A stretch of 64,000 nucleotides of DNA, from the NCBI GenBank assembly GCA_026415675.1, contig JAOAGQ010000022.1, forward strand, positions 4,087-68,086, written 5' to 3'. The first letter of the stretch is position 1, and each line of letters begins with the position of its first letter. A program made the position numbers and the translations under genes. The notes beneath the pieces were generated by a model that worked only from the letters and a program-made list of their open reading frames with translations, searched no databases and was not told the DNA's origin. Shown piece by piece: positions 6,582 through 29,121 of this stretch. Source of the stretch: Syntrophorhabdaceae bacterium (GTDB lineage: Bacteria; Desulfobacterota; Syntrophorhabdia; Syntrophorhabdales; Syntrophorhabdaceae).

Positions 6582-7733
6582 ATGAAACCAACGGAGAGAA
6601 CGGAGAGGATCACCCCGTTTTACGTGATGGAACTCCTTGAAAAGGCAAAGGCGATGGAGGCAAGGGGGGAGGATATCGTCCATATGGAAGTGGGGGAGCC
6701 CGATTTCCCTACCCCGGATAGGATCAAAGAGAAGGCGATCGAGGCGATTAAGGAGAATCACACCTTCTACACCCATAGCCTCGGCATACCTGAACTGAGA
6801 GAGAGGATTGCCGAATACTATAGAACGACAGAAGGTATATCGATCGATAAAGACCGTATAATCATCACAAGCGGTACATCCGGAGCCTTTTTGCTCCTCT
6901 TCAGTGTCCTCCTCGATAGCACAAGGAGCCTCGGTGTCTCAGACCCAGGGTACCCCTGCTATAAAAATGCAGGTATCCTCGTAGATGGGGAGGTTATACC
7001 CATTCCTGTGACAGAGGAGACGAGGTTTGAGATAACCGAAGAACACCTGAAAAAATTGAAGAAAATACCGGATGTGCTTATCGTATCTACCCCATCAAAC
7101 CCTACAGGTATCGTCTATCGGGAAGAGAATTTGAGGAAGCTATGTGAGTTTATGTTGAACGAAGGTAAAATCCTTGTGGTAGACGAACTCTATAACGGTC
7201 TCATTTACGGAAAAAGGGCAAGATCCGCCCTTTCGATTACGGATGAGGTGATTGTCATAAACGGTTTTTCAAAAACCCATGCAATGACAGGGTGGAGGCT
7301 TGGATGGATGGTGGTTCCGGAAAACCTTATAAGGCCGATACATAAGATCTCCCAAAATGTCTATATATCCCCTCCGTCCATAGCCCAGTACGCAGCCCTG
7401 GCGGCATTTGATGTGGGGGACGACCTCGAAGGGATGAAGAGGACATATGCATCACGGAGGGATTTTTTGCTACCCCACCTGCAAGAAATGGGTTTTTATA
7501 TACCTGTTGTGCCCGAGGGTGCATTTTATATCTACGCCGATATAAGCAAATGGAATATGGACAGTATGGTCTTTGTTGAAAGGGCCTTAAATGAGGCAAA
7601 GGTCGCCATCACACCAGGTTATGATTTCGGGAGATTCAGGGCTGAAACCCACATACGTTTCTCCTACGCAAATAAGATGGAAATGCTTAAAAAGGGGTGT
7701 GAAAGGCTTAAAATATGGCTTGGAACGCTCTGA
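6582..7733 (+). CDS. class I/II PLP-dependent aminotransferase (aspartate/aromatic type)
   Basis: 383 aa. Motifs seen are GEPDFPTP, the SNPTG turn and the PLP-lysine motif NGFSKTHAMTGWRLG. Confidence 0.85.
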   Translation: MKPTERTERITPFYVMELLEKAKAMEARGEDIVHMEVGEPDFPTPDRIKEKAIEAIKENHTFYTHSLGIPELRERIAEYYRTTEGISIDKDRIIITSGTSGAFLLLFSVLLDSTRSLGVSDPGYPCYKNAGILVDGEVIPIPVTEETRFEITEEHLKKLKKIPDVLIVSTPSNPTGIVYREENLRKLCEFMLNEGKILVVDELYNGLIYGKRARSALSITDEVIVINGFSKTHAMTGWRLGWMVVPENLIRPIHKISQNVYISPPSIAQYAALAAFDVGDDLEGMKRTYASRRDFLLPHLQEMGFYIPVVPEGAFYIYADISKWNMDSMVFVERALNEAKVAITPGYDFGRFRAETHIRFSYANKMEMLKKGCERLKIWLGTL

Positions 7734-7781
7734 TGTCCCGGCATTCTTCAAACCATTAGTCTTATTGGACCAATAAAAGTT

Positions 7782-8573
7782 ATGCACGAACTAAAAGAGA
7801 TAGATTACGGCAGATATAAGGTTATCTGTTTTAAGGGGGATGATATAGATGTAAGAAGCCTCCTGGAGGGCAAGAAGGATGGCAGACTCATAGAAGGAAG
7901 GGGACGAGCAGGAATAAGGGTTATTGAACTTCCAGGAAAAAGAATCGTCTCAAGACAGTACGTCCATGGTGGTATATTAAGGGGGATCACAAGAGACCTT
8001 TTTTTTTCGGGGAAAAGGGCGATCAACGAGCTTAAAATCATCGCTTATTTAAAGGAGAGAGGGTTTCCCGTTGTGGAACCGTACTGTGTGGTTATAGAGA
8101 ACCTTTTTTTAAGAAAGCGTCTTTTTATGTTTACGTTCTATGAAGAGAACACGGTATCCTTTCCGGAATACCTAAGGTCTGTAAGAGGAAAGGTGCGTTT
8201 GAGAATAATAAAAAGGCTTGCCCACCTTATGTATACCCTTACCATCCTCAACGTATACCATCCCGATCTCCATCTCGATAACATCCTGATTAAGGAAAAG
8301 GGGGAGATGAGGTTTCTCGATTTCGATAGGGCGTATACCAAAATTTTAAAGGGTAAAGATGTGGAAGAGATGTTCTGGAGATTGAATAGATATGCGGAAA
8401 AATTGGAGAAAAAGGGTATCCTCTCCATAGAACTTTCGGAGAAGGCCTTTTTTTTGAAGATATTTGAGAGGTTATCGGGGGATGAATACCGAAAAAAGAT
8501 GGAAAGAAAGAGCCGGGTTAAAGGTATTCTTACAAAAATCGGATGGTATTTTGAAAAAAAAATATATGGTTAA
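7782..8573 (+). CDS. lipopolysaccharide kinase (Kdo/WaaP/InaA) family protein
   Basis: 263 aa. The kinase catalytic loop YHPDLHLDNILI and the FLDFDRA (DFD/DFG-like) motif are typical of the Kdo/LPS-core kinase family. Confidence 0.6.
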   Translation: MHELKEIDYGRYKVICFKGDDIDVRSLLEGKKDGRLIEGRGRAGIRVIELPGKRIVSRQYVHGGILRGITRDLFFSGKRAINELKIIAYLKERGFPVVEPYCVVIENLFLRKRLFMFTFYEENTVSFPEYLRSVRGKVRLRIIKRLAHLMYTLTILNVYHPDLHLDNILIKEKGEMRFLDFDRAYTKILKGKDVEEMFWRLNRYAEKLEKKGILSIELSEKAFFLKIFERLSGDEYRKKMERKSRVKGILTKIGWYFEKKIYG

Positions 8574-9395: not shown

Positions 9396-9911
9396 ATGAT
9401 AGAGCTTTTAAGGAATAGAAGGAGCATCAGAAAATACAAAGAGGAAAAACTCCCCCAGGAGACGGTGGATACTATTGTTGAGGCTTTGCTTAGATCCCCC
9501 TCATCGAGGGGTATAAACCCATGGGAGTTTGTCGTGGTGGAGGATAGGGAGGTTTTGAAAAAATTATCGATGTCCAAAGAGCATGGCTCTTCCTTTCTTT
9601 CCGGGGCAGCCCTGGGCATCGTTGTATGCGGGGACAGCACAAAATCTGACACGTGGATAGAAGACTGTTCCATCGCCTCAATAATAGCCCAGCTCACGGC
9701 GGTATCTTTAGGTCTCGGGACATGCTGGATCCAGATAAGAAACAGAAAACATAAGGACGGGAGATGGGCGGAGGAGTATATAAAGGAGATACTCGGTTTA
9801 GAAAAGCATCTAAGTGTGGAGTCTATAATAGCTATAGGTTATAAAGACGAGGTTAAAAGCCCCGTGCCTAAGGAGAGTTTGGAGTACAAGAAGGTGAGGT
9901 ATATAAAGTAA
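9396..9911 (+). CDS. nitroreductase family protein
   Basis: 171 aa. The N-terminal RRSIRKY motif and INPWEFVVV block are typical of the FMN nitroreductase fold. Confidence 0.75.
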   Translation: MIELLRNRRSIRKYKEEKLPQETVDTIVEALLRSPSSRGINPWEFVVVEDREVLKKLSMSKEHGSSFLSGAALGIVVCGDSTKSDTWIEDCSIASIIAQLTAVSLGLGTCWIQIRNRKHKDGRWAEEYIKEILGLEKHLSVESIIAIGYKDEVKSPVPKESLEYKKVRYIK

Positions 9912-9917
9912 ATTCTG

Positions 9918-12248
9918 TCACCTTCTCGATGTGAACTTCTCCAGTTGTTCGAGGCCCCTTTTTGCGTATGGATTGCCCGGTTCTATTGACTGGGCCGTTA
10001 AAAAGGCCTCTTTTGCCTTTTCGAATCTCCCCTGTGCGGCATAAATGTCCCCCTTTATCACATAGGCCTGGGCAATATGGGGGACCCTTTTTATCACACT
10101 ATCTACCTCTGCCATGGCCTCATCAAGATTCTTCATCATCATCAAGTGGTGTACGAGTCCAAACTTTGCGTGGATCCATTCGAGGGATGGGGGCTCAATA
10201 CCATCAAGTTTCTCAATAATTTTTTTAAAGATGTCCCCTGCTTTTTTCATGTCGTTCATGGCCCTATATATATCCGCCTCGAAAAGAAGATACGTATGAT
10301 GGTTCGGTTTCAATGTTTGTGCGGTCTTTATCATTTGGAGGGCCTCTCCATACCGTCCTTCAAATAACCTGAGGTTGGAGATACTTTCGTAGACCGTTGG
10401 ATTGTTCTTATCCATCGCGATCACACTTTTAATAGACCTTTCCACAAAGGGCGATGCCTGTTTTATAAACCCTTTTCTCAAAGCGAGGACGTCAAAATCG
10501 ATTCGATGGATAAGGACATATACATCAAAGGGGTTATGGTAGTGGGCCCTTTCAAGGAGGGCAGTCCCCTGTTTATAGGCGTTTCCATCACCTGTCACAT
10601 TAAACCTTTTCATATATAGGAGTCCTGCTATATCTTCATAGTAGAAATCGTCAGGCATCGAGGAGAGGCCTTCCTTTATGTTTGCCTCTATGGCATGCCA
10701 TTCCTTAAGAGGGTTCATAGATTGGGATTTCCAGAAGAGTCTATCCGCTTGTATCCTGTTTATGGCATCGGAGATTAGATACATAAGGGCTAAGGCACAG
10801 AGGATCCCTACCCCGAGATAAATCCTTTTCTTCCATCCAGTGATGGGGGGTCTTTCTGTATCGATTAGAGACAAAGAGACGGAAAGACCGAGGATAATCC
10901 AGAAGAACGGAGTAAGCGCAATCTCAAGCCACCCGAAGATATCCTGGACGAGATAGCCCGTGATGGATGCAATACATGCGATTGTAAGGAAGCGTATATC
11001 GATGTCTTGTGACCTTCTGTATGCCCTTATGAGACCTCTTAAAATCAAAAAGAGAAGGAGGATGTATAGAAGAAGGGCAGGTATACCGTTTGTTAAGGCG
11101 GTCTGGAGATAGCCGTTATGTACCATTGTTGGGATTACGTCTTTGAAGTAGATATTATCCTCTACGGGTCTATATCTGGGATAGATTATCCTGAAGTTCT
11201 CAAAGCCTACCCCTGTGATGGGGTGGTCTTTAATCCCTTCTATGGCCACCTTATAGTACATGATACGTGTTGCAAGGGGGGTATCCGTCTTCTTCGAGAG
11301 ATAAAGGCCAATGCTCTCTGTAACCCTTTTGATGTTACCGTAGTTGGATACGAAGATCACCCCGCAGAAGATTGCAAAGACGATAGAGGCAATGGCGAGT
11401 CTTCTTCTGTCTATATTCCTGTTGAAAAAATTTACGACCATGATAATGCCGGTTGAGAAGATCATACCCCACCATGGACCCCTGCTTAATGTACTGAAAC
11501 CTCCGTAAATCAGGATAAGAAAAATGGTAGACCATAGATAAAGGGGGGGATGTCTAAACCCTTTCCTCAAGGCCATAAAAAAGAATGTCAATGCGAAGGG
11601 CATGGCAAGGCCTAACAGTGCGCCAAGTATGACAGGGTTACCTGTCGTTGAAGACGACCTGCCCATAGGCCACGGTATAAAGTCTATACGGTGAAACTGG
11701 AGTATGGCGTATAAGGAAACGGGGACCAATGCGTATACAAAAAGTTTTATTATCCTTTCGATCCTCTCTCTGTCCATAGGCAGTGAGGCGAATACGAAGA
11801 AGAGCAAAAGGTATATCTCGTGGTTCAAAAGGGCATTATATCTACCGTACACACCATGGAGGGCTGTCGGCTTATGGATGGCAAAGAAGGAGGAGAATAT
11901 CCACCAGAGACCGAGAATGATCACTGTATAAGATATGGTCTTCGGTAATCCCTTTATATCCCCTCTCTTTATCCTGTATATCCCCAGTAAGGTTATGAGA
12001 AAAGAGAATACCCTAAGAACGGCAAGTTTAGGTAACGTGAAATGGACCTGAATCTCTGTCGTAAAGGCAAGGGCATGGCAGAAGAAGAAGAGAGAGAAGA
12101 TCACATCTTCGAGAAACATAAGTCTATCTTTTATACCAGAGAATAGGCCTTTATTCTCCCCTTTGACGGTCTTCTTCTCCGGTACTTGAGCGATTTTCTT
12201 ATCCTTTCTCGTCTTTCCTTGCTTCCCCATAAGGACAAAACCCCACAA
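9918..12248 (-). CDS. O-antigen ligase/polymerase-like (Wzy_C) polytopic membrane protein with C-terminal TPR domain
   Basis: 776 aa with about 11-12 TM helices and a large loop (VGFENFRIIYPRY...HNGYLQ) as in O-antigen ligase-like proteins. The C-terminal 250 aa or so are TPR-like repeats (GRYGEALQMIKTAQTLKP, GRFEKAKEAFLTAQSIEPGN). The likely start is MGKQGK (12230). Confidence 0.7.
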   Translation of the reverse strand: MWGFVLMGKQGKTRKDKKIAQVPEKKTVKGENKGLFSGIKDRLMFLEDVIFSLFFFCHALAFTTEIQVHFTLPKLAVLRVFSFLITLLGIYRIKRGDIKGLPKTISYTVIILGLWWIFSSFFAIHKPTALHGVYGRYNALLNHEIYLLLFFVFASLPMDRERIERIIKLFVYALVPVSLYAILQFHRIDFIPWPMGRSSSTTGNPVILGALLGLAMPFALTFFFMALRKGFRHPPLYLWSTIFLILIYGGFSTLSRGPWWGMIFSTGIIMVVNFFNRNIDRRRLAIASIVFAIFCGVIFVSNYGNIKRVTESIGLYLSKKTDTPLATRIMYYKVAIEGIKDHPITGVGFENFRIIYPRYRPVEDNIYFKDVIPTMVHNGYLQTALTNGIPALLLYILLLFLILRGLIRAYRRSQDIDIRFLTIACIASITGYLVQDIFGWLEIALTPFFWIILGLSVSLSLIDTERPPITGWKKRIYLGVGILCALALMYLISDAINRIQADRLFWKSQSMNPLKEWHAIEANIKEGLSSMPDDFYYEDIAGLLYMKRFNVTGDGNAYKQGTALLERAHYHNPFDVYVLIHRIDFDVLALRKGFIKQASPFVERSIKSVIAMDKNNPTVYESISNLRLFEGRYGEALQMIKTAQTLKPNHHTYLLFEADIYRAMNDMKKAGDIFKKIIEKLDGIEPPSLEWIHAKFGLVHHLMMMKNLDEAMAEVDSVIKRVPHIAQAYVIKGDIYAAQGRFEKAKEAFLTAQSIEPGNPYAKRGLEQLEKFTSRR

Positions 12249-12313
12249 ATGATAATTTTTTTTTAAATTTTTCGATTATAACCTAAACAGATTGAAAATG
12301 TATAGTCTTTCCT

Positions 12314-14608
12314 GTGATGATTATCATTTACAATAACGGATGGGTGGTGCATATTATATATTGTATGATTCTTTATCTCTATTTACTTATCTTTCTTTCC
12401 TTTTTTGTTTTCTATCCCTTTGATATTTCTGCCCAATCCGTAAAAGACGGGGAGCAGAATGGGTATGTGGAAGGGGAACTCCTCATAAAATTCAAAGAGG
12501 GCGTCTCCCATAAAGAGAAGGCATCCTTTTTGAAAAAACATAACCTTGATAGATTACGGGAGTTCAAGAGGGCGAGGATACATCATATAAAGCTCCCGAA
12601 GGGGGTAGATTTAAAGGAGTATCTGGAGAAGTTGAAAAAGGATAAAGATGTGGAGTATGTGGAGCCAAACTACAAGAGAAGGCCCATGGGGATTATACCC
12701 GATGACCCTGCCCTATCCGAACAATGGGGTCTAACAAAGATAGGTATGCCTTCGGTGTGGAATAGTGCAAGGGGTTCTAAAGATATAATAGTTGCCGTTA
12801 TCGATACGGGGGTGGATTACAACCATCCGGATCTTGCCCCGAATATGTGGAAGAACAATAAGGATACAGAGGGCAATAAAGTGGATGACGACGGTAACGG
12901 TTTTATAGATGATGTCTACGGCTGGAATTTTTACAGTAAAAATAATAACCCCATGGACTACAAAGGCCACGGTACCCATGTGGCAGGGATCATAGGGGCC
13001 GTAACAAATAACGGTCTCGGTGTCGCAGGGGTGAACTGGCAGGTGAGTATAATGCCTTTGAAGTTCATGGAGGCTGAAGGCGATGTGGCCTCGGAGATAG
13101 ATGCGATAGAATATGCCCTTGATATGGGGGCGAAGATCATAAATGCGAGTTTCGGAGACTCTACCTTTACAAGGGCAGAATACGATGCGATAAAGGCTGC
13201 AGGAGAGAGAGGGGCCCTGTTTATAGCGGCGGCAGGGAACAGTCGTAACGACAATGACGGGGTAGCGAAGAACTACCCTGCCTCATATACGGTAGAGAAC
13301 AAAATAAACGGCGTAACGTATCCCCCCCTTACCAATATAATATCCGTTGCGGCAACAGATGGAAACGATAATATCGCAACATTTTCAAACTATGGGGCAA
13401 TAAGCGTCCATCTTGGAGCGCCGGGGGTCAACATCCTCTCCACGATACCCCAGGGAAGATCCGATATGCCCGGGGCCTCTCTCACCGTAAATGGGGTAAA
13501 ATACAAGGCATACGGCATGGAATATTCAGGGCAGGTGCCGAAGGAGGGCATAACAAGACAGATATTTTACTCCGGGTACGGGGCGAGGATGGATGAGTTC
13601 CCCCCTGAAGTAAGGGGCAATATTGCCCTTATCAAGAGAGGTTCAGAGGATGGTTCGGCGGTTACATTCAAGGACAAGACGATCAATGCCCAGAATGCAG
13701 GGGCAGTGGCGGCGATCATATACAATAATCAGTCTGGGTATCAGATAGTAAACGGTACGTTAAGTGAGCCAGGGGAATGGATCCCTGTAATCTCCATCTC
13801 TATGGAAGATGGGGAAAAGCTAAAATCAATGGGTAATCCCACGGCGACCCTTATCAATTATCCATACAACACGAATAGCGGTACATCTATGGCAACCCCC
13901 TTTGTAAGTGGAGTGGCAGCCCTTCTGTGGTCTTTAAAACCTGATGCAAAGGCATCGGAGATAAAGGAAATAATCATGGAATCCGTCGACCCTGTCGATT
14001 CCCTTACGGGAAAAACGATTACAGGGGGGAGGCTCAATGCGTTAAAGGCAATACAGAAGATGGCGACCCAGATCCCCGTAAAGTTTGTTCTGAATAGGGG
14101 ATGGAATTTTGTATCCTTCCCGGGGGTGCCCGAAGGGGGCATAGCCATTGAACAATTGTTTAAGGATATCTCGGATAATGTTAAGGTCGTATGGGGTTTT
14201 GATAATAGAACGAAGGAATGGGAACTATTCAGGTTTAACGCTCAAAATTCGAGGTTTAAACCCTTACAAACCATAGAGCCTGAGAAAGGTTACTGGGTAT
14301 ATATGGCTGACAGTAGAACCTTAAATCTAAATGGCACCTCTCTCCCGTATCTTAACCTCACCCTTTATGATGGCTGGAACCTTGTCGGTTATGGGGGATA
14401 CAACGGCTCCGATGTAAGGACATCCTTGAGCAGTCTCTCCGGTAACTGGGTTATCGTATGGGGCTGGGAGGATGGTCAGTGGTATGCAAGACATAGCTTG
14501 TCCGATGAGTTACCCATCAATATTCTACCCCTCGAAACCCTGAAGGTAAACAAGGCATACTGGCTTAAAATGAATTCCCCGGGGAAGAGTATAAATTGGG
14601 TCCAATGA
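12314..14608 (+). CDS. secreted subtilisin-like S8 serine protease (I9 propeptide, PA-domain insert) with shared C-terminal domain
   Basis: Catalytic triad contexts VAVIDTGVD, HGTHVAG and GTSMATP. The propeptide is LLIKFKEG...VEYVEPN and the PA insert is IALIKRG...AGAVAAIIYNN. The hydrophobic N-terminus suggests the start may be ATG 12365. The last 179 aa form the shared CTD. Confidence 0.9.
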   Translation: MMIIIYNNGWVVHIIYCMILYLYLLIFLSFFVFYPFDISAQSVKDGEQNGYVEGELLIKFKEGVSHKEKASFLKKHNLDRLREFKRARIHHIKLPKGVDLKEYLEKLKKDKDVEYVEPNYKRRPMGIIPDDPALSEQWGLTKIGMPSVWNSARGSKDIIVAVIDTGVDYNHPDLAPNMWKNNKDTEGNKVDDDGNGFIDDVYGWNFYSKNNNPMDYKGHGTHVAGIIGAVTNNGLGVAGVNWQVSIMPLKFMEAEGDVASEIDAIEYALDMGAKIINASFGDSTFTRAEYDAIKAAGERGALFIAAAGNSRNDNDGVAKNYPASYTVENKINGVTYPPLTNIISVAATDGNDNIATFSNYGAISVHLGAPGVNILSTIPQGRSDMPGASLTVNGVKYKAYGMEYSGQVPKEGITRQIFYSGYGARMDEFPPEVRGNIALIKRGSEDGSAVTFKDKTINAQNAGAVAAIIYNNQSGYQIVNGTLSEPGEWIPVISISMEDGEKLKSMGNPTATLINYPYNTNSGTSMATPFVSGVAALLWSLKPDAKASEIKEIIMESVDPVDSLTGKTITGGRLNALKAIQKMATQIPVKFVLNRGWNFVSFPGVPEGGIAIEQLFKDISDNVKVVWGFDNRTKEWELFRFNAQNSRFKPLQTIEPEKGYWVYMADSRTLNLNGTSLPYLNLTLYDGWNLVGYGGYNGSDVRTSLSSLSGNWVIVWGWEDGQWYARHSLSDELPINILPLETLKVNKAYWLKMNSPGKSINWVQ
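14069..14605 (+). repeat. shared C-terminal domain, copy 1 (protein-level repeat)
   Basis: aa 586-764 of the S8 protease. It carries the blocks GWNFVSFP, VVWGFDNRTKEW, EKGYWVYM, GWNLVGY, IVWGWEDGQWYAR and NKAYWLKM, which align with copies 2 and 3. Confidence 0.85.
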
Positions 14609-14657
14609 GCATATCTTTAAGGTATAAAGATGTTCGAACGTTAACGGGAGGTCTCGG

Positions 14658-17345
14658 ATGTTAAAAAAACTTTTTATTTTTATGTGCCTTATAGCTTTTA
14701 TATCCGTATTCACCGGGATTCCATTAATTGCCGGGGATATACGGGAGAATGTTGCCGTAAACTTCCTTAAATTCATAAAGAGTGAAAAAGAGATTCTATC
14801 TATAGAGCCCATCGAATCTAACGCCCTGAACCCCGAAGGAGAGAAGATATATACAGGCACCATAGTGCATCTCAAAGGGGGTGGCTATATCCTCATATCC
14901 CCATCGATGAGCTTAACCCCCATCAAGGCATATTCCCTTGAGAGACCTTTCTCTGACCTCCCCGAACCATATAGGATATTTCTTCTCCGGGAACTCGAGT
15001 ATAAAGCAAGGGCTTTGAAGGCGATTAAGACCCCGGAGGCCGAGTGGGCAACGGAGAATGAAAAGAGATGGTATTTTCTCCTTAACCTCGAAAATATCCG
15101 TTATCCCTATTCATATCAGCCAGGGACACCTCTTTTGAGCACGAGGTGGGATCAAGGTTCGCCCTATAACAGGTATCTCCCCTTAATGCAGGGAACGCGG
15201 GTGGTCGCTGGTTGTGTGAATGTGGCTATGGCCCAGATATTTAGGTATTATAAATCCCCGGCAAAAGGTGCAGGTGTTGTCACTTATACATGGAATCAAG
15301 AACAGTTAAAGGCAATTCTCTACCGGGATTTCAACTGGGATAATATGCCCGATGTCCTCGATGCCACAACCCCGGATTACAAGGTAGATGAGGTGGCAAA
15401 GTTGATTAGAGACCTCGTTATTGTCAACCACACCGAACTCGGCGTTGAGTCCTCGGGGGCAACGATCAATCTTTCAGGCCTTATAGAACACTTCGGTCTC
15501 TCAAATACCGTAAAGGACATGGAAAATAATAATTTTCAAGCGTTTTTAAGCAAAATAAAAGAGGAGATAAACGGGGAGAGACCTCTTCTTATAGAATTCC
15601 CGGGACACCTCGCCATAGCCGATGGATTTGGGGCGGATCCTACAGGCAACAAAATCCATGTAAATATGGGCTGGGGAGGGTTCGGAAACGACTTTTACTA
15701 CCTCGACCAGCCTATCGTTTACGATCCACAGAACAATAATAGTTTTTCTCAGGTATTGAGGATCTACTACAATGTAAAACCGTGTAGTGGTTCTGACTGT
15801 GCCCCTAATCTCGAGCAGGGGGATACGATAAACGGATATACTATCACAGGAAAATTCAATTTCCCCTATGATGGAGACAGCTATAAGGTGTATCTTAAGG
15901 GACAGACAACGATAGGCGGCTCAAGGACTGGTATCTCCGGTCAGTCCTTCTATATTACCTTATACGATGCTGAAATGAGGGTATTAAAGGAAGAGGGGGC
16001 CCCATTCACCATAGAGTTGACGCCTGGTTTATATACGGTCAGAAGCTCTTTGTGTAATATAAAGGGTACTTGCTGGGCCTATACCGGTAATTCAGGGGAC
16101 AACTACACGGTGAACATTACCACGCAACCGTTGACAGATGAAGAGAGATCGACAATAGACAGCGCCCTCGATAAAGGACCTGTGATACTCAATGACTTTA
16201 AGGATATGGTATTGAACTCAAACAGGACTGACCCTTTAAAAATCCTTATAGACGCAAGGGATGAAAACGGCGATAACATGACCCTTACAACCACAAATAC
16301 GAATGACAATGCGATCTCCCTCTCCCTCACCAAAAATATCCTAAATATTACACCTGTTCCTGGAGCAGACAAGGTCGCAAGCAGGGTAATAGTCTCTGCC
16401 TATGCCAACGGGAAAAAGGTGGAGAAATCGTTCATAGTGATGGTGCTAAATGAGGATATATCCTACGGGAGAGCATACTCTTTGGCCGGTGTATTTGCCA
16501 GTCAGTCCGATTACGACACATATAAGGTGATACTCGATGGGGCATGTTCTATTTCAGGTAGTATAAGCGGTTATTCAGGCCAGCCGTTTTTTACATCTGT
16601 AAAGGATAAGGACGGTACTGTGGTTGTTGCCCCAAAAAATCAAAACATAGGTTGGACATTTACAAGGGGACTATACCTATTAGGGGCATCCCTTCAAGAA
16701 AATCCCGGAGGGGCGGGACGTTATTATAACTACAGCGCCCTTTTAAACCACAACTATACCCTTACCGTTTCTTGTCCGAATGCAACGGAGGATGTCACGA
16801 CCATTGCGACCATGCTCGGTGTAGATTTAAGCGGTACGGTCCCTAAGGCACCGGCACTCGTTCTTTCGCCGGGATGGAATTTTGTCTCTTTTTCCCGACT
16901 CCCTGCAGGCACACAAAACATTTCAACGGTCCTAAAAGATGTTTCAAAAAACGTAAAGGTTGTGTGGGGGTTTGATAATCAGACGAAAGAGTGGCTATTA
17001 TTCAAGTTCAACCTCCAAAGTTCAAAATTCAAGGTTTTAGAAAACGTAGAATCCGGTAAGGGTTACTGGATTTATATGGATGCCTTGGGCAATATTAATA
17101 TGGAGGGCTGGATAGAAGGACCTCAGACAATAACCCTATACGAAGGTTGGAACCTTGCCGGTTATAACGGTACAGACGGCGCAATGAACCTCCCTTCAGG
17201 ATATATTATCATCTGGGGCTGGGACAACGGACAGTGGAAGGCAAAGCATAAAGAAACCACCCCGAACGTCCCTCCCCTGACAGGCCTTTATAAGGGAAAG
17301 GCTTACTGGCTGAGGATGGAAAGACAGGCAGGGTGGCAGCAGTGA
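14658..17345 (+). CDS. secreted C10-family (streptopain-like) cysteine protease with two PPC-like domains and shared C-terminal domain
   Basis: It has a signal-like N-terminus and a propeptide resembling the C10 inhibitor domain (VAVNFLKFIK). The catalytic Cys context is AGCVNVAMAQIFRYY and the His context is GHLAIADGFG. Two related beta modules share D(G/Y)D(S/T)YKV..G...G.SGQ(S/P)F. The last 165 aa form the shared CTD. Confidence 0.8.
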   Translation: MLKKLFIFMCLIAFISVFTGIPLIAGDIRENVAVNFLKFIKSEKEILSIEPIESNALNPEGEKIYTGTIVHLKGGGYILISPSMSLTPIKAYSLERPFSDLPEPYRIFLLRELEYKARALKAIKTPEAEWATENEKRWYFLLNLENIRYPYSYQPGTPLLSTRWDQGSPYNRYLPLMQGTRVVAGCVNVAMAQIFRYYKSPAKGAGVVTYTWNQEQLKAILYRDFNWDNMPDVLDATTPDYKVDEVAKLIRDLVIVNHTELGVESSGATINLSGLIEHFGLSNTVKDMENNNFQAFLSKIKEEINGERPLLIEFPGHLAIADGFGADPTGNKIHVNMGWGGFGNDFYYLDQPIVYDPQNNNSFSQVLRIYYNVKPCSGSDCAPNLEQGDTINGYTITGKFNFPYDGDSYKVYLKGQTTIGGSRTGISGQSFYITLYDAEMRVLKEEGAPFTIELTPGLYTVRSSLCNIKGTCWAYTGNSGDNYTVNITTQPLTDEERSTIDSALDKGPVILNDFKDMVLNSNRTDPLKILIDARDENGDNMTLTTTNTNDNAISLSLTKNILNITPVPGADKVASRVIVSAYANGKKVEKSFIVMVLNEDISYGRAYSLAGVFASQSDYDTYKVILDGACSISGSISGYSGQPFFTSVKDKDGTVVVAPKNQNIGWTFTRGLYLLGASLQENPGGAGRYYNYSALLNHNYTLTVSCPNATEDVTTIATMLGVDLSGTVPKAPALVLSPGWNFVSFSRLPAGTQNISTVLKDVSKNVKVVWGFDNQTKEWLLFKFNLQSSKFKVLENVESGKGYWIYMDALGNINMEGWIEGPQTITLYEGWNLAGYNGTDGAMNLPSGYIIIWGWDNGQWKAKHKETTPNVPPLTGLYKGKAYWLRMERQAGWQQ
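16848..17342 (+). repeat. shared C-terminal domain, copy 2
   Basis: aa 731-895 of the C10 protease, with GWNFVSFS, VVWGFDNQTKEW, GKGYWIYM, GWNLAGY, IIWGWDNGQWKAK and GKAYWLRM. Confidence 0.85.
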
Positions 17346-17373
17346 TATTAGATTTTGAAGGGGAGGTGGAAAA

Positions 17374-20300
17374 GTGGAAAAGGAAGAAGAAAGTGAACGG
17401 ATCGCGGGATATGGTGAAAAGACACTGAACATTACAGCCTCTTGTTTTTTATTCATATGCCTTACGTTGGTCTTCCCGATTCTTTTATATGCCGAATCGA
17501 TATTGACATGGCACTATAGAAACCCCATACCCCAGGGAAACCCCTTAAGGGGGGTTTCTTATGGTGGAGGGGTCTATCTTGCTGTTGGTGATGGTGGAAC
17601 GGTCGTATCGTCTCCGGACGGAATAAACTGGAATCTCCTAAATTCAGGTGTTAATGAAGATATCATAGGTATAGCTTACGGAAAAGGGATTTTTGTCGCC
17701 GTGACTAGGGGTGATTATTACACGGGGAGTAAAATTCTCGTCTCCTCCGATTGCGGAAATACATGGACCTCTATTGATAAGGGAGGTTACAATTTACAGG
17801 ATGTTACCTTTATATCAGGGGGTACCTTTGGGGACGGTATTTTTATTGTATCGGGGAGAGATAACGGAAATGGGAAGGCAGCGATTATCACCGCCACAAA
17901 CCCTTCTCTGATCGATGGTTGGGTTGCCCAGAACAGTGTGCAAAGCGTAACGGATACAAGTTTACTCCATAAGGTTGTAGGAGGAGTTACCCAATCGGGA
18001 GAGATCGTAATCGTTGGAGTAGGGGCAGGGGGCACGATTGTAACATCCTCAAACGGAATAGACTGGGTAAAAGTTTCTTCTGTTTCGGGGGAAGATCTCC
18101 TCGACGTGGCGTATGGAGGTGGGATATTCGTAGCGGTGGGTGTAAATGGGAAAGTACTCTCCTCTCCAGATGGAAACAACTGGAATCCAAACGATATCGG
18201 TACATTGGGTACGGTAAGAGGGGTAGCCTATGGGGGAGGGAGGTTTATATCGGTTCTGGAAAAAGGAAAAGTAGCTACATCTACGGATGGAAAAAGCTGG
18301 ACATCAAAGGGTTCAGGTGTTTTTAATGACCTTTTTTCGGTCTGCTATGGCACACAATTTGTGGCAGTTGGCGAAAACGGTGCAATCCTCACATCCCCGG
18401 ATGGCATCACTTGGACTGTGAGAAGCGGGGATGTTCTGGGGAATATGTACTACAGAACCTTAAGGGGGATCGTTTATGCAGATGGCTTATTCGTTGTCGT
18501 AGGGGATGTTGGCACCATCCTCACATCCCCGGATGGTGTTAAGTGGACAAAAAGATACACATTGACGGATAAAAATCTGTACGGGATCTCTTACGGAGAG
18601 GGCCGATTTGTTGCGGTCGGAGATAAAGGGACGATTCTCACATCAACAGACGGTATCGAATGGGTGGAAAGGTATTCCGGTGTTGAAAATAATTTAAGGG
18701 GAGTAACCTTTGGTAAGGGCATTTTTGTGGCTGTAGGTGAAAAAGGAAGCGATGATCTAAGATATGCGGCGATACTCACCTCTGTTGACGGGACAACTTG
18801 GTCTGCACAGAATTCCGGCGTTTCAATGGATCTACAGGACATAGCATACGGAAGCGGTATATTCGCTGCGATAGGGACAGGGGGGCAGACACTCGTCCTC
18901 ACATCGAACGATGGGGTAGGCTGGACCAAAAAGGATACTTCCGGATATGTTGGTTTTAACAGCATCGTTTACGGGGACGGTAGATTTATAGGGGTAGGTT
19001 TTTACGGCAAATGGATGGGTTCAACAAACGGTATAGACTGGCCTATATCCAATCTAAACGTAGACCTGAGGTCTATCTTATACATAAATCAAACATTCCT
19101 TGCCGTAGGCGGCACTGGAAACGACGAGAACGTTTTTTACCCTGAAGGGCAGACATGGAAGACGATAAAGACCGGTATCCCTGCGGTGTTATACGGTGTT
19201 GCCTTTGGTAACGATACCTTTGTGGCAGTTGGGACAAATGGTACCATCATACAATCGGATAGATTTCCCTATGCACCCCTACATCCTGCCGCATTTGAGG
19301 TGAATGTACCGCCCCATACCATAAGTGAAAATAGTGCCACCATAACGTGGAAGACACAGACACCCACGGTAGGTCAGATTGAGTACAGGAGGGAAGGGAC
19401 CGATGTATGGAAAACGGCAATGGAGTTGTCCCAGAGGACAGAGCATAGCGTAACAATAGATATGCTCACCCCTGACACTGTCTACTATTTCAGGATTATA
19501 GGGCTTGATAAAAATGGAGAAACCACCAAGTCTGCCGAATACAGCTTTATGACCGTCCCTGTCCACTATGTACTTACCATTACAAAGAAGGGTTCCGGTA
19601 CTGCCGAGATATTTGCGGAAGGTCTTTCCTGTAATGACTTAGGGTGTAAAGGTTCGTATAGTAGGGGAAGGAGGGTAGAGATAAAACTCTCCCCCCGTAT
19701 CGATTCAACCATACTCTTTTGGACAGAGGAATGCAGAGGCGCTAAAGACACATGCACCGTATCTATGGATTCAGATATAAATCTTACGGTTCTTTTGGGT
19801 AAGGTACGTATCCCCAATGGTGAACCCTTAAATACTTGGGTATTTAGGAACCCTGTGCCTCAGGGAAACACAATCAATGCACTATCCTTTGGCGGTGATA
19901 TTTTTGTCGCTGTCGGTGATTACGGAACAATATTAACATCCCCTGATGGAAATGGCTGGACAAAAAGGTATGCCGATACTACGGAAAACCTCGTTGGTGT
20001 TGGATATGGAAATGGCCTTTTTGTTGCGGTGGATAGAAAAGGGGCCATCATTATATCTCCTGACGGCATAAAATGGACAAAGATTCTCGAAGGAAAGGAG
20101 AGTATATATCTGTCTTATGCCCCTGTTGCTTATGGGAATGGCCTATTTGTTGTTCAAACATACAAGGCGTATCTCGTTTCGACGAATGGGATAGACTGGA
20201 TAACCACTTCGGGTTCGACACAATTCATCGATATGATCTTCTGTAACGGCCTTTTTTTGGGAGGGACGGGGAGCGAATACGGTGGAAACGCTGTGATACA

Positions 20301-22050
20301 GGTTTCCCCAGATGGCATAAACTGGTTTCCAAGGTCTCCAAAGACAGGATATACCATAACCGCCCTCGCATGCGGGGGAGATAACATCTTTGCCGTTTCA
20401 AGGGTCGGTAATATCTCCATTTCTTCTGATGGTGTTGAATGGACGGTTAAAAATTCCGGCACATCCCTGTATTCTCTCTCCGATGTTGTATACGGTAATG
20501 GTTTATACGTAGCGGTTGGAGGCAACGGTCTTATCCTCACATCAACAGATGCATCGAATTGGGTTAAAGTAGAAACGGGAAGTAGTTCGTATTTTAAGAA
20601 TGTGGCATTCGGAAATAACAGGTTTGTTGTAACAGGGAATAATGGGGCAACGCTATACTCTACGAACGGTGTTTCCTGGAATGCGTTGAATAAGGGGGAT
20701 AACGGTTGGATCACAGGTATAGCTTACGGGAATGGAGTCTATGTCGCAGTAGGCGATGGGATCATCTCCTCTCATGACCGGAAGAACTGGACAAAAAGGG
20801 CATCGGGGACCTTCTATGGTATCTCTTTTGTTAACAACAGGTTTGTAGCGGTCGGACATTACGATCTCCTCCTTACCTCTAATGACGGTATTGATTGGAA
20901 GACGCAAAATATACCAAAAAATAGCGCTAACCTCTATGGGGTGGCTTTCGGCAAGTATCGTTATGTGGCCGTTGGAGGGACAAATACGGGGATTATCATT
21001 ACTTCCTCGGATGCCTCTGCCTGGTCAAATGTCGATATGGGACAACAGAATGTTTTGAGTCTCTTCGGATTTAGTGGCGTTGCATACGGAGAAGATGGGG
21101 CAGGGAATGGAAGGTTTGTTGCGGTAGGTAATGGCTGGGATGGAGAGAAGTGGAGCGGCATTATTTTCACCTCTAATGATGGACTCAAATGGACATTAAA
21201 AGAATACGGCCATTATAATGCCTTTCACGATGTGATTTACGTAGATAACGCCTTCTATGTGATAGGGGGCGTGATATTAAGAACTACAGATTTAGGTGAG
21301 TCGTGGCAGAAGATAAGTGACTATGGTGGTTATGGATTGGGTTACGGGAATAACACCCTTATCGCCACAGGGGATAGTGGCACAATATATACTTCTACCG
21401 ACAGGGGCTTAACCTGGAATACATACAGATTGCCTACGGGCTTATCACTGACAAAGGCGGTCTTTGGGGATGGGAGATGGCTTGTTGTGGGAGAGAATGG
21501 AACGATTATGGAATCTTTATCCACCACTTCCATTTCAGGGATGGTTCTCTCAAAGGGTTGGAATTTCTTATCATTTCCTCTTCTGCCTGCAGAAAGTATA
21601 AAAGTTGAGGAGATGCTGTCGGGGTATATGCCCGCCGTGAGACTTGTATGGGGCTATGATAATAGGTCAAAGGAATGGCAGTTATGGAAGCTCAACAATC
21701 AAAGTCAGATGTTCAAGATATTAAATACCCTTGAATCTGGAAAGGGATACTGGGTATATATGGATAGCCCTTCCGTACTCGATATATCAAACTGGAATGA
21801 AGGTCCAAGGAGAATCAGCCTTTCTCCAGGATGGAATTTGGTAGGCTGGAACGGAGAGAACGGAAAGTCGGTGAAAGATGCCCTCTCTTCCCTCAACGAC
21901 TGGATAATCCTCTGGGGCTGGGATAACGGTGTATGGAAGGCAAAACAGAGTAACCAAAACGTAACCATAAACGTTACCCCTTTAGAAATATTGCAAAACG
22001 GTAAGGCATACTGGATATGGATGGGGAAAGGGGGAGATTGGGAAGAGTAA
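17374..22050 (+). CDS. giant secreted Asp-box (BNR-like) beta-propeller repeat protein: 14 blades, FN3, InlB-B-repeat-like domain, 14 blades, shared C-terminal domain
   Basis: 1558 aa with GTG start and a hydrophobic N-terminal segment. There are 28 repeats of about 40 aa of the form L.GV.YG.G.FVAVG..G.ILTS.DG..W, with Asp-box-like S-x-D-x-G-x-x-W. The FN3-like segment is SATITWKT...YYFRI. The Cys-containing B-repeat-like segment is YVLTITKKGSGTAEI...C..LGC...W.EEC...C. Confidence 0.8.
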   Translation: MEKEEESERIAGYGEKTLNITASCFLFICLTLVFPILLYAESILTWHYRNPIPQGNPLRGVSYGGGVYLAVGDGGTVVSSPDGINWNLLNSGVNEDIIGIAYGKGIFVAVTRGDYYTGSKILVSSDCGNTWTSIDKGGYNLQDVTFISGGTFGDGIFIVSGRDNGNGKAAIITATNPSLIDGWVAQNSVQSVTDTSLLHKVVGGVTQSGEIVIVGVGAGGTIVTSSNGIDWVKVSSVSGEDLLDVAYGGGIFVAVGVNGKVLSSPDGNNWNPNDIGTLGTVRGVAYGGGRFISVLEKGKVATSTDGKSWTSKGSGVFNDLFSVCYGTQFVAVGENGAILTSPDGITWTVRSGDVLGNMYYRTLRGIVYADGLFVVVGDVGTILTSPDGVKWTKRYTLTDKNLYGISYGEGRFVAVGDKGTILTSTDGIEWVERYSGVENNLRGVTFGKGIFVAVGEKGSDDLRYAAILTSVDGTTWSAQNSGVSMDLQDIAYGSGIFAAIGTGGQTLVLTSNDGVGWTKKDTSGYVGFNSIVYGDGRFIGVGFYGKWMGSTNGIDWPISNLNVDLRSILYINQTFLAVGGTGNDENVFYPEGQTWKTIKTGIPAVLYGVAFGNDTFVAVGTNGTIIQSDRFPYAPLHPAAFEVNVPPHTISENSATITWKTQTPTVGQIEYRREGTDVWKTAMELSQRTEHSVTIDMLTPDTVYYFRIIGLDKNGETTKSAEYSFMTVPVHYVLTITKKGSGTAEIFAEGLSCNDLGCKGSYSRGRRVEIKLSPRIDSTILFWTEECRGAKDTCTVSMDSDINLTVLLGKVRIPNGEPLNTWVFRNPVPQGNTINALSFGGDIFVAVGDYGTILTSPDGNGWTKRYADTTENLVGVGYGNGLFVAVDRKGAIIISPDGIKWTKILEGKESIYLSYAPVAYGNGLFVVQTYKAYLVSTNGIDWITTSGSTQFIDMIFCNGLFLGGTGSEYGGNAVIQVSPDGINWFPRSPKTGYTITALACGGDNIFAVSRVGNISISSDGVEWTVKNSGTSLYSLSDVVYGNGLYVAVGGNGLILTSTDASNWVKVETGSSSYFKNVAFGNNRFVVTGNNGATLYSTNGVSWNALNKGDNGWITGIAYGNGVYVAVGDGIISSHDRKNWTKRASGTFYGISFVNNRFVAVGHYDLLLTSNDGIDWKTQNIPKNSANLYGVAFGKYRYVAVGGTNTGIIITSSDASAWSNVDMGQQNVLSLFGFSGVAYGEDGAGNGRFVAVGNGWDGEKWSGIIFTSNDGLKWTLKEYGHYNAFHDVIYVDNAFYVIGGVILRTTDLGESWQKISDYGGYGLGYGNNTLIATGDSGTIYTSTDRGLTWNTYRLPTGLSLTKAVFGDGRWLVVGENGTIMESLSTTSISGMVLSKGWNFLSFPLLPAESIKVEEMLSGYMPAVRLVWGYDNRSKEWQLWKLNNQSQMFKILNTLESGKGYWVYMDSPSVLDISNWNEGPRRISLSPGWNLVGWNGENGKSVKDALSSLNDWIILWGWDNGVWKAKQSNQNVTINVTPLEILQNGKAYWIWMGKGGDWEE
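17509..19260 (+). repeat. propeller super-module 1 (14 blades)
   Basis: It starts with WHYRNPIPQGN. I counted 14 successive blades, each ending in a DG..W-type motif. Confidence 0.7.
19837..21519 (+). repeat. propeller super-module 2 (14 blades)
   Basis: It starts with WVFRNPVPQGN, the same entry motif as module 1, and again has 14 blades. Confidence 0.7.
21529..22047 (+). repeat. shared C-terminal domain, copy 3
   Basis: aa 1386-1558 of the giant protein, with GWNFLSFP, LVWGYDNRSKEW, GKGYWVYM, GWNLVGW, ILWGWDNGVWKAK and GKAYWIWM. Confidence 0.85.
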
Positions 22051-26648: not shown

Positions 26649-26762
26649 CTTCTCTCCTTTCTTCGATTCATTCTTTACAAAGGCGTATATTATAGCATAA
26701 CCCCATGGTTTTTGAAATAACCATTATCTTACCGTTCTCGGTTAAACATAGTAAATCCATGC

Positions 26763-26790
26763 TTGACACCTCCCCTCTGCGGGGTATATA
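26763..26790 (+). promoter_or_regulatory. sigma70-type promoter for the NYN-like gene / helicase pair
   Basis: TTGACA (26763-26768), 16 nt, TATATA (26785-26790). GAGAGAGGA Shine-Dalgarno lies before ATG 26810. Confidence 0.5.
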
Positions 26791-26809
26791 TAAGAGAGAG
26801 GACAAAACG

Positions 26810-27397
26810 ATGAAGCTCATACTTATGATAGATTACGAAAATATTCAGGGAATAAGCTTAAATGGCATTGATCCGGAAAGGGTAGAGGTCTGGTTTTTTG
26901 TGGGTAAATCACAGAATAAGATACCCTTTGAACTTGTAGAGTCCACCCAGCCATTCGGAAAATCATTGAAATGGATAAAGATAGAGGGAAACGGGAAAAA
27001 CAACCTGGACTTTCATATGATTTTTGAACTGGGAAGGCTCACCTCTGAAAGAGAAGTTCCAAAAGATATATACATACTCTCAAAAGACAAAGGGTTTGAT
27101 CCTGTTATCCAATATGCAAACAAATTTGGCCTCAAGGCAAAGAGGATAGTCAGCCTCTCCCAGTTGCCCTCCTCTGATTTGGGAATGCCAAAGTCGGACC
27201 ATACGGCAGCGGTCATTATAAACCTCTCAAAGATACCACCCCCGAGAAGACCGAGGACAAGGGCGTCCCTTGCCATGCATCTTAAAAACACCTTTTCCGG
27301 GAGAATGGAAGAAAGGGAGATAGAGACCATTGTGGAACAGCTTTTCATAGAGGGTAAAATTTCCGAAAGCGGAAACCGTTTGAAATATGAGTTGTAA
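26810..27397 (+). CDS. NYN/LabA-like (PIN-like) putative nuclease domain protein with small C-terminal domain
   Basis: 195 aa from ATG 26810; the track ORF from 26705 overruns the promoter. The NYN-like layout is LILMIDYENIQ, then GKNNLDFHM, then ILSKDKGFDP. A helical tail of about 50 aa follows. The assignment is by motif pattern only. Confidence 0.5.
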   Translation: MKLILMIDYENIQGISLNGIDPERVEVWFFVGKSQNKIPFELVESTQPFGKSLKWIKIEGNGKNNLDFHMIFELGRLTSEREVPKDIYILSKDKGFDPVIQYANKFGLKAKRIVSLSQLPSSDLGMPKSDHTAAVIINLSKIPPPRRPRTRASLAMHLKNTFSGRMEEREIETIVEQLFIEGKISESGNRLKYEL

Positions 27398-27435
27398 ACA
27401 TAAGAGACTATCCTGATATATACGACATAACTGCC

Positions 27436-29121
27436 ATGAATGGAAAAGGGGGTATATCCGGGGGATTAGATACAAATCAGAGGGAAGCCGTTGAAGCTAT
27501 AGACGGCCCTCTTCTCGTCGTCTCAGGCCCAGGGGCAGGAAAGACAACAACCGTTGTAAATAGAATAGCCCATCTTATTGATCAAGGCATAAAGCCCGAG
27601 AACATATGTGCCCTCACCTTCACAAATAGGGCAGGGAGGGAGATCCGTGAGAGGGCATACAGTATAATCGGGGATAGGGTTAATAGGGTATTTATCGGAA
27701 CCATCCATCTTTTGGGCCTCAGGATACTTAAGGATTCAGGTTATAGAGATTTTCTACTGATAGATAGAGAGAAGCAACTCTCCATCATAGGTTCCCTCGT
27801 AAAAAAAGATGGAAACAGAGAGGCAGAAAAGATACTGGAGGCGATATCAAGGATAAAAAACCATACCGATGTTTTAAACGAGGGGATAAGGGGTATATAC
27901 GACACCTACGAATCGTACCTCTTTAGGGAGAAATTTCTTGACTTCGATGACCTTATAAAAAAACCTTTAGAGATTGTCGAGTCGGACCGTTCTTCCAACC
28001 CCTATAGAGGGAAGTTTAGCCATATCATAGTCGATGAATACCAGGACATAAATTACGGGCAGTATAGACTCATACGTCTTCTTTTAAATAATGGGGGTAG
28101 TATATGTGCCGTTGGCGATTCCGACCAGGCCATATACACCTTCAGGGGGGCGGATATCGAGAATTTTCTAAACTTCGAGAAGGATTTCAAAGGCGCAAGA
28201 AAGGTGACACTCTCCTTTAACTATAGGTCTACAGGGAGGATAGTCTATGCCTCAAGCAAGGTAATAGAAAATAATAGAAGGAGGATAGAAAAAAGACTCG
28301 AGGGAAAAAGGGAAGAGGGGGAAAGGATCAAGGTGGTCTCTGTACCTGATGAAAGATACGAAGGTCTGTTTATCGTGGGAGAGATAGAACATCTAATCGG
28401 TGGCACAAGCCACTACAACCTCTACAGGAAAGGGGCGACGATTTCCGAAAACGAAAAAAATTATACTTTTTCAGATTTTGCCGTACTCTATAGGACAAAT
28501 GCACAGGTTTCAGCCATTGAGGGGGCATTTACGACATCGGGCATACCCTATCGGGTGATAGGAAGAGAAAATTCACAGAAAAAGAAGATCATAAAAGAGA
28601 TCTTGTCCTCTCCGGGTGGCAAATATAGCTTTGATGAAGGTTGCCTTAATACCATTTTGGATAGGATGATCCCTGTCTTTACGTATAGACCCCATTATAC
28701 CTTTCAATCAAGGGAGGAGATAATCGATTTCATAAATGAATTTTGTCTTTTATCCCCTGCGGATGATTATGACAGAGAGGTGGATGCGGTATCCCTTATG
28801 ACGATACACATGGCAAAGGGGCTTGAGTTCAAGGTTGTATTCCTCGTTGGTGTTGAGGATGGTATTATCCCTTTCAGCCTAAAGGGAGAATCTGTGGATA
28901 TGGAGGAGGAGAGAAGACTTTTCTATGTTGGTATGACGAGGGCAGCGGATAGACTCTACCTCATCCATTCTGATAGAAGGGTAATATACGGGAAATTAAG
29001 GGACATGTCCCGATCGAGGTTCATATCAGAAATCCCCGATGAATTCGTAGAAAGGGTTTTTCCCTTTGAAAAAGGCCGAAAAAGGCAAAAAAATCGTCAG
29101 ATGTCCCTATTCGGGGATTGA
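27436..29121 (+). CDS. compact UvrD/PcrA/Rep-family SF1 DNA helicase
   Basis: 561 aa. Motifs are I GPGAGKTT, Ia TFTNRAG, II VDEYQD, III GDSDQAIYTFRGA, IV NYRS and VI YVGMTRA. It is shorter than typical 700+ aa UvrD, apparently through a reduced 2B region. Confidence 0.85.
   Translation: MNGKGGISGGLDTNQREAVEAIDGPLLVVSGPGAGKTTTVVNRIAHLIDQGIKPENICALTFTNRAGREIRERAYSIIGDRVNRVFIGTIHLLGLRILKDSGYRDFLLIDREKQLSIIGSLVKKDGNREAEKILEAISRIKNHTDVLNEGIRGIYDTYESYLFREKFLDFDDLIKKPLEIVESDRSSNPYRGKFSHIIVDEYQDINYGQYRLIRLLLNNGGSICAVGDSDQAIYTFRGADIENFLNFEKDFKGARKVTLSFNYRSTGRIVYASSKVIENNRRRIEKRLEGKREEGERIKVVSVPDERYEGLFIVGEIEHLIGGTSHYNLYRKGATISENEKNYTFSDFAVLYRTNAQVSAIEGAFTTSGIPYRVIGRENSQKKKIIKEILSSPGGKYSFDEGCLNTILDRMIPVFTYRPHYTFQSREEIIDFINEFCLLSPADDYDREVDAVSLMTIHMAKGLEFKVVFLVGVEDGIIPFSLKGESVDMEEERRLFYVGMTRAADRLYLIHSDRRVIYGKLRDMSRSRFISEIPDEFVERVFPFEKGRKRQKNRQMSLFGD

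Follow-up and report, generated by a model that had tools for sequence, protein, structure and literature searches.

Several families of accessory domains recur on otherwise unrelated secreted proteins. Type I dockerins (PF00404) of cellulosomal enzymes are helical domains of ∼70 amino acids (aa) with Ca-binding EF-hand-like loops in two ∼22-residue repeats; they lie mostly, but not exclusively, at the C-terminus of many unrelated secreted enzymes. The T9SS (type IX secretion system) C-terminal domain (CTD) is a single immunoglobulin-like domain of ∼70–100 aa, strictly C-terminal, cleaved by PorU, and limited to Bacteroidota and FCB relatives (the PorK/L/M/N/U/V lineages). Carbohydrate-binding modules (CBMs) and PPC and PKD domains are autonomous, aromatic-rich accessory domains of hydrolases, and SLH (PF00395) and GW (PF13457) domains are repeated domains that bind noncovalently to pyruvylated secondary cell-wall polymers or lipoteichoic acid. 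Here, we analyze a 64-kb stretch of DNA (hereafter, the window) from an 85-kb contig of a Syntrophorhabdaceae metagenome-assembled genome (MAG; window proteins are NCBI MCX8021690-98), in which three adjacent genes encode an S8 protease, a C10 protease, and a β-propeller protein that all end in the same tail. Sequence comparison indicates that all three tails represent one extracytoplasmic module of 165–175 aa, which is widespread and has so far not been described.

The module has features of each of these systems. With type I dockerins it shares an apparently noncatalytic character, an internal tandem duplication, a preferred but not exclusive C-terminal position on many unrelated secreted enzymes, many paralogues per genome, often in clustered genes, and the absence of a transmembrane segment or cleavage motif; unlike them, it is ∼170 aa long, β-rich, and Trp-rich, lacks a Ca-binding motif, and has no cohesin-like partner near its genes at 43 loci. 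Like the T9SS CTD, it is a β-rich tail that S8 and C10 proteases, adhesins, and propellers of one genome share and that mostly lies at their extreme C-terminus, but it is twice as long, consists of two repeats, is flexibly placed, and occurs in Desulfobacterota, Chloroflexota, and archaea. It behaves like CBMs, PPC, and PKD domains in being an autonomous, aromatic-rich domain found at either end of hydrolases, and its setting overlaps with theirs (LamG, BACON, CHB_HEX_C, and PKD domains co-occur with it), but it has no sequence or fold match to solved members of these groups in the PDB. Its repeats, its N- or C-terminal placement on secreted or surface proteins, and a presumably noncovalent mode of attachment recall SLH and GW domains, but no SLH or GW model matches it, and the ligands of those domains are absent from most of the taxa that carry it, such as Methanomicrobiales, Bathyarchaeia, Dehalococcoidia, and diderm Desulfobacterota. 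We regard the module as a widespread domain family, so far undescribed, whose functional kind is familiar, and see nothing that points to machinery of a new type.

A Two-Repeat Module Shared by Three Secreted Proteins

The original prediction, made from the nucleotide sequence alone, described three co-oriented open reading frames (ORFs) separated by 49 and 28 nucleotides, whose products have unrelated N-terminal parts and hydrophobic export-like N-terminal segments and share only their C-terminal domain. We could reproduce this arrangement at the same coordinates (Table 1). Pfam assigns the N-terminal parts to an S8 protease, a C10 protease, and Asp-box propellers, and an export-like segment is present in all three proteins. 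Pairwise BLAST of the full proteins matches the tails alone, with E values of 2e-41 to 8e-44. The tails of 179, 165, and 173 aa align end to end and contain every motif block that had been listed; the alignment has 59 invariant columns and 45–50% identity to the first sequence, a similarity far above chance level. A six-frame scan of the window with a hidden Markov model (HMM) finds exactly three copies of the module.

Within each tail, a repeat of ∼80 aa is duplicated in tandem, and first and second halves match each other by BLAST with E values of 1e-5 to 9e-11. The repeat follows the pattern GWN[FL/LV] … (short helix) … [VI]WGxDN..W … GK[GA]YW[VIL]xM, and a half-repeat HMM recognizes both repeats of the S8 tail with independent E values of 2.6e-23 and 7e-19. 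When the same HMM was applied to 305 family proteins, exactly two repeats were found in 285; multicopy proteins mostly contain 4, 6, or 10 repeats (one has 5), and lone repeats occur mainly in short, probably fragmentary sequences. Since pairs are nearly universal, the unit is the repeat pair. The module is 6.2% Trp and almost devoid of Cys (11 Trp and no Cys in the S8 tail), and the three proteins end in …GKSINWVQ, …ERQAGWQQ, and …GKGGDWEE, with no hydrophobic helix.

Family Size, Taxonomic Range, and Age of the Copies

An hmmsearch of 1.84 billion representative sequences returned 8,330 proteins at E ≤ 1e-3, of which 1,909 reach E ≤ 1e-10 and 162 reach E ≤ 1e-30. The possibility, raised with the original prediction, that the domain occurs nowhere else thus falls away. 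A word-index protein search with the 179-aa profile gave only matches of ≤313 aa, whereas the exhaustive search gave long proteins that score equally well or better, so passenger statistics from the word-index set alone are biased toward fragments. In a pattern-based genome scan, two other Syntrophorhabdaceae MAGs each had at least 9–10 module genes. The module also turned up in Omnitrophota, Nitrospiraceae, Desulfobacteraceae, Poribacteria, Dehalococcoidia, and other Chloroflexota and, among archaea, in Woesearchaeota, Bathyarchaeia, Nanohaloarchaea, Thermoplasmata, and Methanomicrobiales, the last including Methanolinea, Methanoregulaceae, and the cultured Methanospirillum stamsii Pt1 (L033 9611-10708). 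Because the patterns were taken from the window, this list of taxa is biased and the counts are lower bounds.

The module was not found in viral contigs with two narrow pattern sets, or by tblastn in INPHARED phages and PLSDB plasmids. One family member consisting of a signal peptide and the module (P0051; L043 8001-8594, on a 66-kb Logan contig) lies in a mobile-element or phage-like region, next to genes for an Mrr_cat nuclease, an HTH regulator, an SNF2-type helicase, an HNH endonuclease, an N6/N4 methyltransferase, and an LPD29 protein. With no module found by these viral, INPHARED, and PLSDB scans, this context is an isolated observation.

The three copies in the window are 44–48% identical to each other and 48–53% identical to relatives in other genomes. 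They are old paralogues with nearer relatives elsewhere, and the other possibility raised at the outset, a recent local duplication, is rejected on this ground. Fusions of the same kinds also recur. The S8 protease joined to the module is found at L005, L046, and L010 (an orthologue with 40% full-length identity), as well as in the archaeal Methanolinea loci L031 and L032, the C10 architecture is kept in an 892-aa orthologue (P0126), and propeller relatives carry the module at the C-terminus (L006) or the N-terminus (L001). The two Methanolinea MAGs (L031 8222-10489; L032 8246-10501) have the same layout of prodomain, S8 domain, and module as the window; the protease part is 36% identical to that of the window and the module 23–27%. 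The shared layout hints at either an exchange of whole fusion genes between syntroph and methanogen or parallel fusion.

Placement, Export, and Passengers

Among the top 150 representatives, the module is C-terminal (within 15 residues of the end) in 110, N-terminal in 9, internal in 26, and present in several copies in 5, so that 40 (27%) depart from a single C-terminal copy. The propeller passengers illustrate this flexibility, with the module directly after the signal peptide at L001 and at the C-terminus at L006 and in the window. At L003, the module sits between a CarboxypepD_reg domain and a β-lactamase-fold domain. In P0125, five modules are distributed among eight PKD domains and a LamG domain, with a dockerin at the C-terminus. 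P0008, P0051, and P0107 consist of a signal peptide or anchor and the module alone. In Woesearchaeota members, an N-terminal membrane anchor is followed by an ectodomain of >1000 aa, with the module at the distal C-terminal tip.

An N-terminal hydrophobic segment was found in 98 of 134 representatives, compared with 10 of 387 internal control windows, which marks the family as extracytoplasmic. The passengers are of kinds usual for secreted enzymes and adhesins. Enzymes among them include S8, C10, and M12 peptidases, polysaccharide lyases, and β-lactamase-fold proteins. Other passengers include NHL, PD40, and DUF5122 propellers and PKD, fn3, LamG, BACON, TSP3, RHS, and cohesin domains; CHB_HEX_C was also seen to co-occur. 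No marked Pro/Thr-rich linker separates passenger and module.

Predicted Structure

AlphaFold2 was run on the C10 tail with a 123-sequence family alignment and gave a confident model (predicted local distance difference test score, pLDDT, 96.2; predicted template modeling score, pTM, 0.89), which supersedes a poor one made from the three window tails alone (pLDDT 58). The predicted fold has six strands per repeat, with short helices in repeat one, and both repeats pack as one body; the model thus predicts a single compact pseudosymmetric unit. Foldseek comparison of this whole-module model with the PDB gave a best E of 0.2 and template modeling (TM) scores of ≤0.22, and comparison with BFVD a best E of 0.066, with no significant neighbor; the returns were insignificant two-domain β proteins. 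A sequence-profile search of the PDB stayed at chance level (best E 0.1–0.34). Ap4A hydrolase and flavivirus NS1, the latter through a GYWIE motif, were set aside as chance profile matches. From the PDB and BFVD comparison, the predicted fold is apparently new.

Match to Known Families and Literature

The original prediction could not assign the tail to LPXTG, PEP-CTERM, T9SS CTD, SLH, dockerin, or PPC, and our searches agree: none of these Pfam or NCBIfam models matches it, and no match to a characterized anchoring or carbohydrate-binding domain was found in Pfam, NCBIfam, or the PDB. The tails of the whole window proteins were unmatched at E ≤ 0.1. Among 123 family members, passenger domains were matched at E ≤ 0.01 and the module was not, and ten isolated bacterial and archaeal modules gave zero matches even at E ≤ 10. 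Weak matches to FlgD_ig, a T9SS CTD look-alike, occur in 2 of the 123 members (E = 0.002), their location within the protein not being established. The T9SS CTD models TIGR04183, TIGR04131, and PF18962 matched none of the tails, the 123 members, or the isolated modules, and the window has no por genes. Tags of the LPXTG, PEP-CTERM, or PGF-CTERM type were sought in NCBIfam without a match, and the tails have no transmembrane helix or basic end; in the 48 members with sequence after the module, no C-terminus resembles a transmembrane segment. A sortase, exosortase, or archaeosortase tag was ruled out on these grounds, as neither the tails nor the sequences after internal modules have a hydrophobic C-terminal helix. 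PF00404 did not match the module, the repeats of which are ∼80 aa long and predicted to form β strands, and no SLH, GW, LysM, PPC, or PKD model overlaps it, the PKD and fn3 matches falling in passengers. No test of membership in the dockerin, T9SS CTD, sortase-type tag, SLH, GW, LysM, PPC, or PKD groups placed the module in any of them. Stand-alone family members are labeled "hypothetical protein" in the source databases, and full-text literature searches based on its motif strings or on secreted peptidases of Syntrophorhabdaceae returned no description of the module.

Gene Neighborhood

The original prediction proposed that the domain would join the three window proteins into one extracellular system. 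Side-by-side module genes with unrelated passengers are found in the window and again at L009, where the three passengers are an Lcl_C/fn3 adhesin, a DUF5122 propeller, and an NHL/YncE propeller. The window trio itself is not a fixed system, because the syntenic locus L046 has the S8 gene and neither a C10 nor a propeller gene. L046 corresponds to window positions 9396-14608 and contains, in the same order, a nitroreductase gene, a Wzy_C gene with tetratricopeptide repeats (TPR) on the reverse strand, and a forward-strand gene for a fervidolysin-type prodomain, an S8 domain, and the module. Gene order points to the divergent pair of Wzy_C/TPR and S8-module genes as the conserved core, with the other two genes as lineage-specific additions. 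In L046, the S8-module gene (6102-8401) is called as two ORFs with a 13-nucleotide overlap, a 568-aa S8 part and a 201-aa module part (P0012). A frameshift, a pseudogene, or an assembly error could account for the split.

Across the 43 module loci, no conserved partner or processing gene was found, and only ubiquitous response regulators and histidine kinases recur; annotated contexts of further family members are heterogeneous. The Wzy_C/TPR gene has a counterpart in L046 (3612-5927, reverse strand) in the same divergent arrangement and an orthologue at L014 (6919-9282, reverse strand; 54% identical) that adjoins two module genes. Past the latter gene, no S8 start is recognizable in the 205 nucleotides that remain before the end of L014. 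The Wzy_C/TPR gene does not recur at the other module loci among the 43 and is thus not a family-wide partner. Its adjacency could reflect glycosylation of, or glycan attachment to, secreted module proteins, or plain synteny.

What the Module May Do

The flexible placement, the propellers with a module at either end, the stand-alone copies, the distal tips, the lack of a transmembrane tag, and the lack of a partner together argue against a cleaved C-terminal sorting signal and favor an autonomous module. We consider it somewhat better than an even bet that the module is one of binding or targeting. After Sec export it would stay on the mature protein and hold its passenger on a common extracellular target, which may be a polymer or another protein. 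It would itself be noncatalytic, following the logic of a dockerin, an SLH domain, or a CBM rather than that of a cleaved sorting signal. Several points weigh against this reading. The envelopes of the carriers are unrelated (diderm Desulfobacterota, S-layered or sheathed archaea, and Dehalococcoidia), which makes a single ligand of the cell's own envelope, such as peptidoglycan, unlikely; a more plausible ligand is a polymer of the environment or matrix or else a protein, which could be a partner or the module itself. The C-terminal preference (73%) would fit a sorting role too. The conserved aromatic residues may have a structural role: both faces of the strand GYWIYM are hydrophobic, a hint that some or all of its aromatics are buried between sheets or repeats. 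A remote link to a known β-sandwich class is possible, the fold search having covered the PDB and BFVD with the whole module. Homology, the paired repeats, the size and range of the family, the flexible placement, the export signals, and the lack of a match to known families or solved folds are shown here; that the module binds something is inferred.

If the ligand is a protein, the binding module would become a dockerin-like assembly module, which binds itself or a dedicated partner so that neighboring module proteins co-assemble outside the cell. The duplicated pseudosymmetric repeat, the many paralogues per genome, the neighboring genes in the window and at L009 whose passengers are unrelated, and scaffold-like proteins with two to five modules (P0125, P0255) all fit this special case; stand-alone modules could serve as adaptors, and the module's ability to function across unrelated envelopes would be understandable if it bound a protein. 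Yet no partner family recurs near module genes at the 43 loci, the trio is reduced to its S8 gene at L046, and P0125 has a genuine dockerin besides its modules, which suggests a different job for the module there, so that we regard assembly of this kind as possible but unlikely. The sorting tag among the roles first proposed for the domain fares worse. A signal read by a dedicated export or attachment machinery, as in T9SS, and possibly removed later, would account for the 73% of top representatives with the module within 15 residues of the C-terminus, for the many cargo paralogues per genome, for cargo that resembles that of T9SS (S8 and C10 proteases, adhesins, and propellers), and for the ligase-like Wzy_C/TPR gene kept beside the S8 gene in Syntrophorhabdaceae. 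It is hard to reconcile with the 27% of N-terminal, internal, or multicopy placements, with a module at either end of the same passenger, with modules that have no cargo, or with carriers as different as archaea, Dehalococcoidia, and diderm bacteria, which have no such machinery in common. Neither a transmembrane segment nor a basic tail is present, models of the T9SS CTD, PEP-CTERM, and related tags do not match, and no neighbor is conserved family-wide at the 43 loci; we give this explanation little credence.

Comparably low is the likelihood that we assign to a purely structural role, in which the module would be a stabilizing cap, a spacer, or an intramolecular chaperone without an external ligand, in the manner of P-domains or the β-sandwich extensions of subtilases. 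Strands that are very hydrophobic and aromatic on both faces and the direct attachment to the passenger, with no marked Pro/Thr-rich linker, would be expected of such a domain, but the module is joined to dozens of unrelated passengers, including nonenzymes, and exists in a stand-alone secreted form, and a chaperone for one fold would not be so promiscuous. That the three copies reflect recent duplication or domain shuffling restricted to this locus, as their presence within 10 kb might suggest, has next to no probability given their closer relatives in other genomes, the 8,330 representatives elsewhere, and the S8 and C10 fusions conserved at L010 and L046 and in P0126. A more far-reaching idea, which we think improbable, is that the module is an adhesion domain of new fold that has spread among bacteria and archaea of anoxic habitats and mediates cell–cell or cell–matrix attachment in partnerships. 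Candidate partners would be Syntrophorhabdaceae with Methanomicrobiales, the episymbiotic DPANN archaea, with the module at the tip of membrane-anchored giants, and Omnitrophota. Contacts would be either homotypic, a "Velcro" between modules on different cells, or made through a common surface glycan, and the window trio would then be a surface-held toolkit of proteases and a propeller.

Whatever the ligand of the favored binding module, thousands of secreted proteases, hydrolases, and adhesins in uncultured anaerobes, among them syntrophs, methanogens, Bathyarchaeia, DPANN, and Omnitrophota, carry a module without a Pfam or NCBIfam model, and with a family definition many surface proteins that are now "hypothetical" or half annotated would be better annotated. 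Knowledge of the ligand would show how these organisms retain their extracellular enzymes and adhesins, a question with a bearing on the breakdown of protein in sediments and digesters and possibly on the association of cells with one another. The confidently predicted, apparently new small β fold is a target for structure determination, and the cultured carrier M. stamsii Pt1 makes experiments feasible.

Proteins of the Cluster and Other Genes in the Window

The S8 passenger matches PF00082 with E 2.4e-56 in Pfam and has intact DTG, HGTH, and GTSMA triad motifs. In the NCBI version (P0121), the protein is 753 aa long and starts 11 codons downstream; the true start is probably at 12347. The C10 passenger matches PF01640 with E 2.8e-37 over the entire model length in Pfam. 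Its GCV (aa 185-187) and GHLA (aa 316-319) motifs, by their similarity to SpeB, presumably contain the catalytic Cys and His. The ∼380 aa between the C10 domain and the module (15702-16847; aa ∼348-730) have no Pfam or NCBIfam match; by eye, this stretch contains two similar segments with D.D.YKV-type motifs, reminiscent of PPC domains. In the propeller protein, which has 21 Asp-box-like motifs, the two propeller blocks flank a domain resembling fn3 and the purple acid phosphatase N-terminal domain (aa ∼643-727), and Pfam reports DUF6242, HVO_0234-like, and Sortilin-Vps10 in addition to fn3. NCBIfam adds only related protease and propeller models to the three proteins, all in passenger parts. 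Promoter and terminator counts across the cluster hardly differ from those expected after shuffling, so that the scan as such is uninformative, and the three genes have no terminator between them; the short gaps and terminator-free intergenic stretches are compatible with co-transcription.

Table 1. Positions of the three module genes, their module copies, and the divergent neighboring gene in the window
Feature	Position	Strand	Details
Secreted subtilase, 764 aa: signal peptide, fervidolysin-like N-prodomain, S8 domain with inserted PA domain, C-terminal two-repeat module	12314-14608	+	Pfam PF22148, PF00082, PF02225
Module copy 1 (S8 tail, 179 aa)	14069-14605	+	Repeat a 14075-14329, repeat b 14351-14593
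Secreted C10 (streptopain-family) cysteine peptidase, 895 aa: signal peptide, C10 domain (aa 164-347), C-terminal module	14658-17345	+	Pfam; NCBI MCX8021696.1
Module copy 2 (C10 tail, 165 aa; sequence modeled)	16848-17342	+	Repeat a 16848-17102, repeat b 17121-17342
Secreted protein, 1558 aa: two large Asp-box/BNR-type β-propeller blocks, C-terminal module	17374-22050	+	Pfam, motif scan
Module copy 3 (propeller tail, 173 aa)	21529-22047	+	Repeat a 21535-21786, repeat b 21805-22047
Wzy_C (O-antigen-ligase/O-oligosaccharyltransferase-like) membrane protein, 776 aa, C-terminal TPR	9918-12248	-	Pfam; divergent from S8 gene

Farther along the forward strand, positions 26705-29121 encode a PIN7-domain protein (230 aa) followed by a UvrD/REP-type helicase (561 aa), a possible nuclease–helicase pair unrelated to the module. 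Positions 32580-34001 (forward strand) encode the selenocysteine synthase SelA (PF03841, E 3.6e-144). The exact SelA sequence is absent from the protein collection, in which four other window proteins that were looked up are present. The presence of SelA indicates that the organism probably makes selenoproteins.

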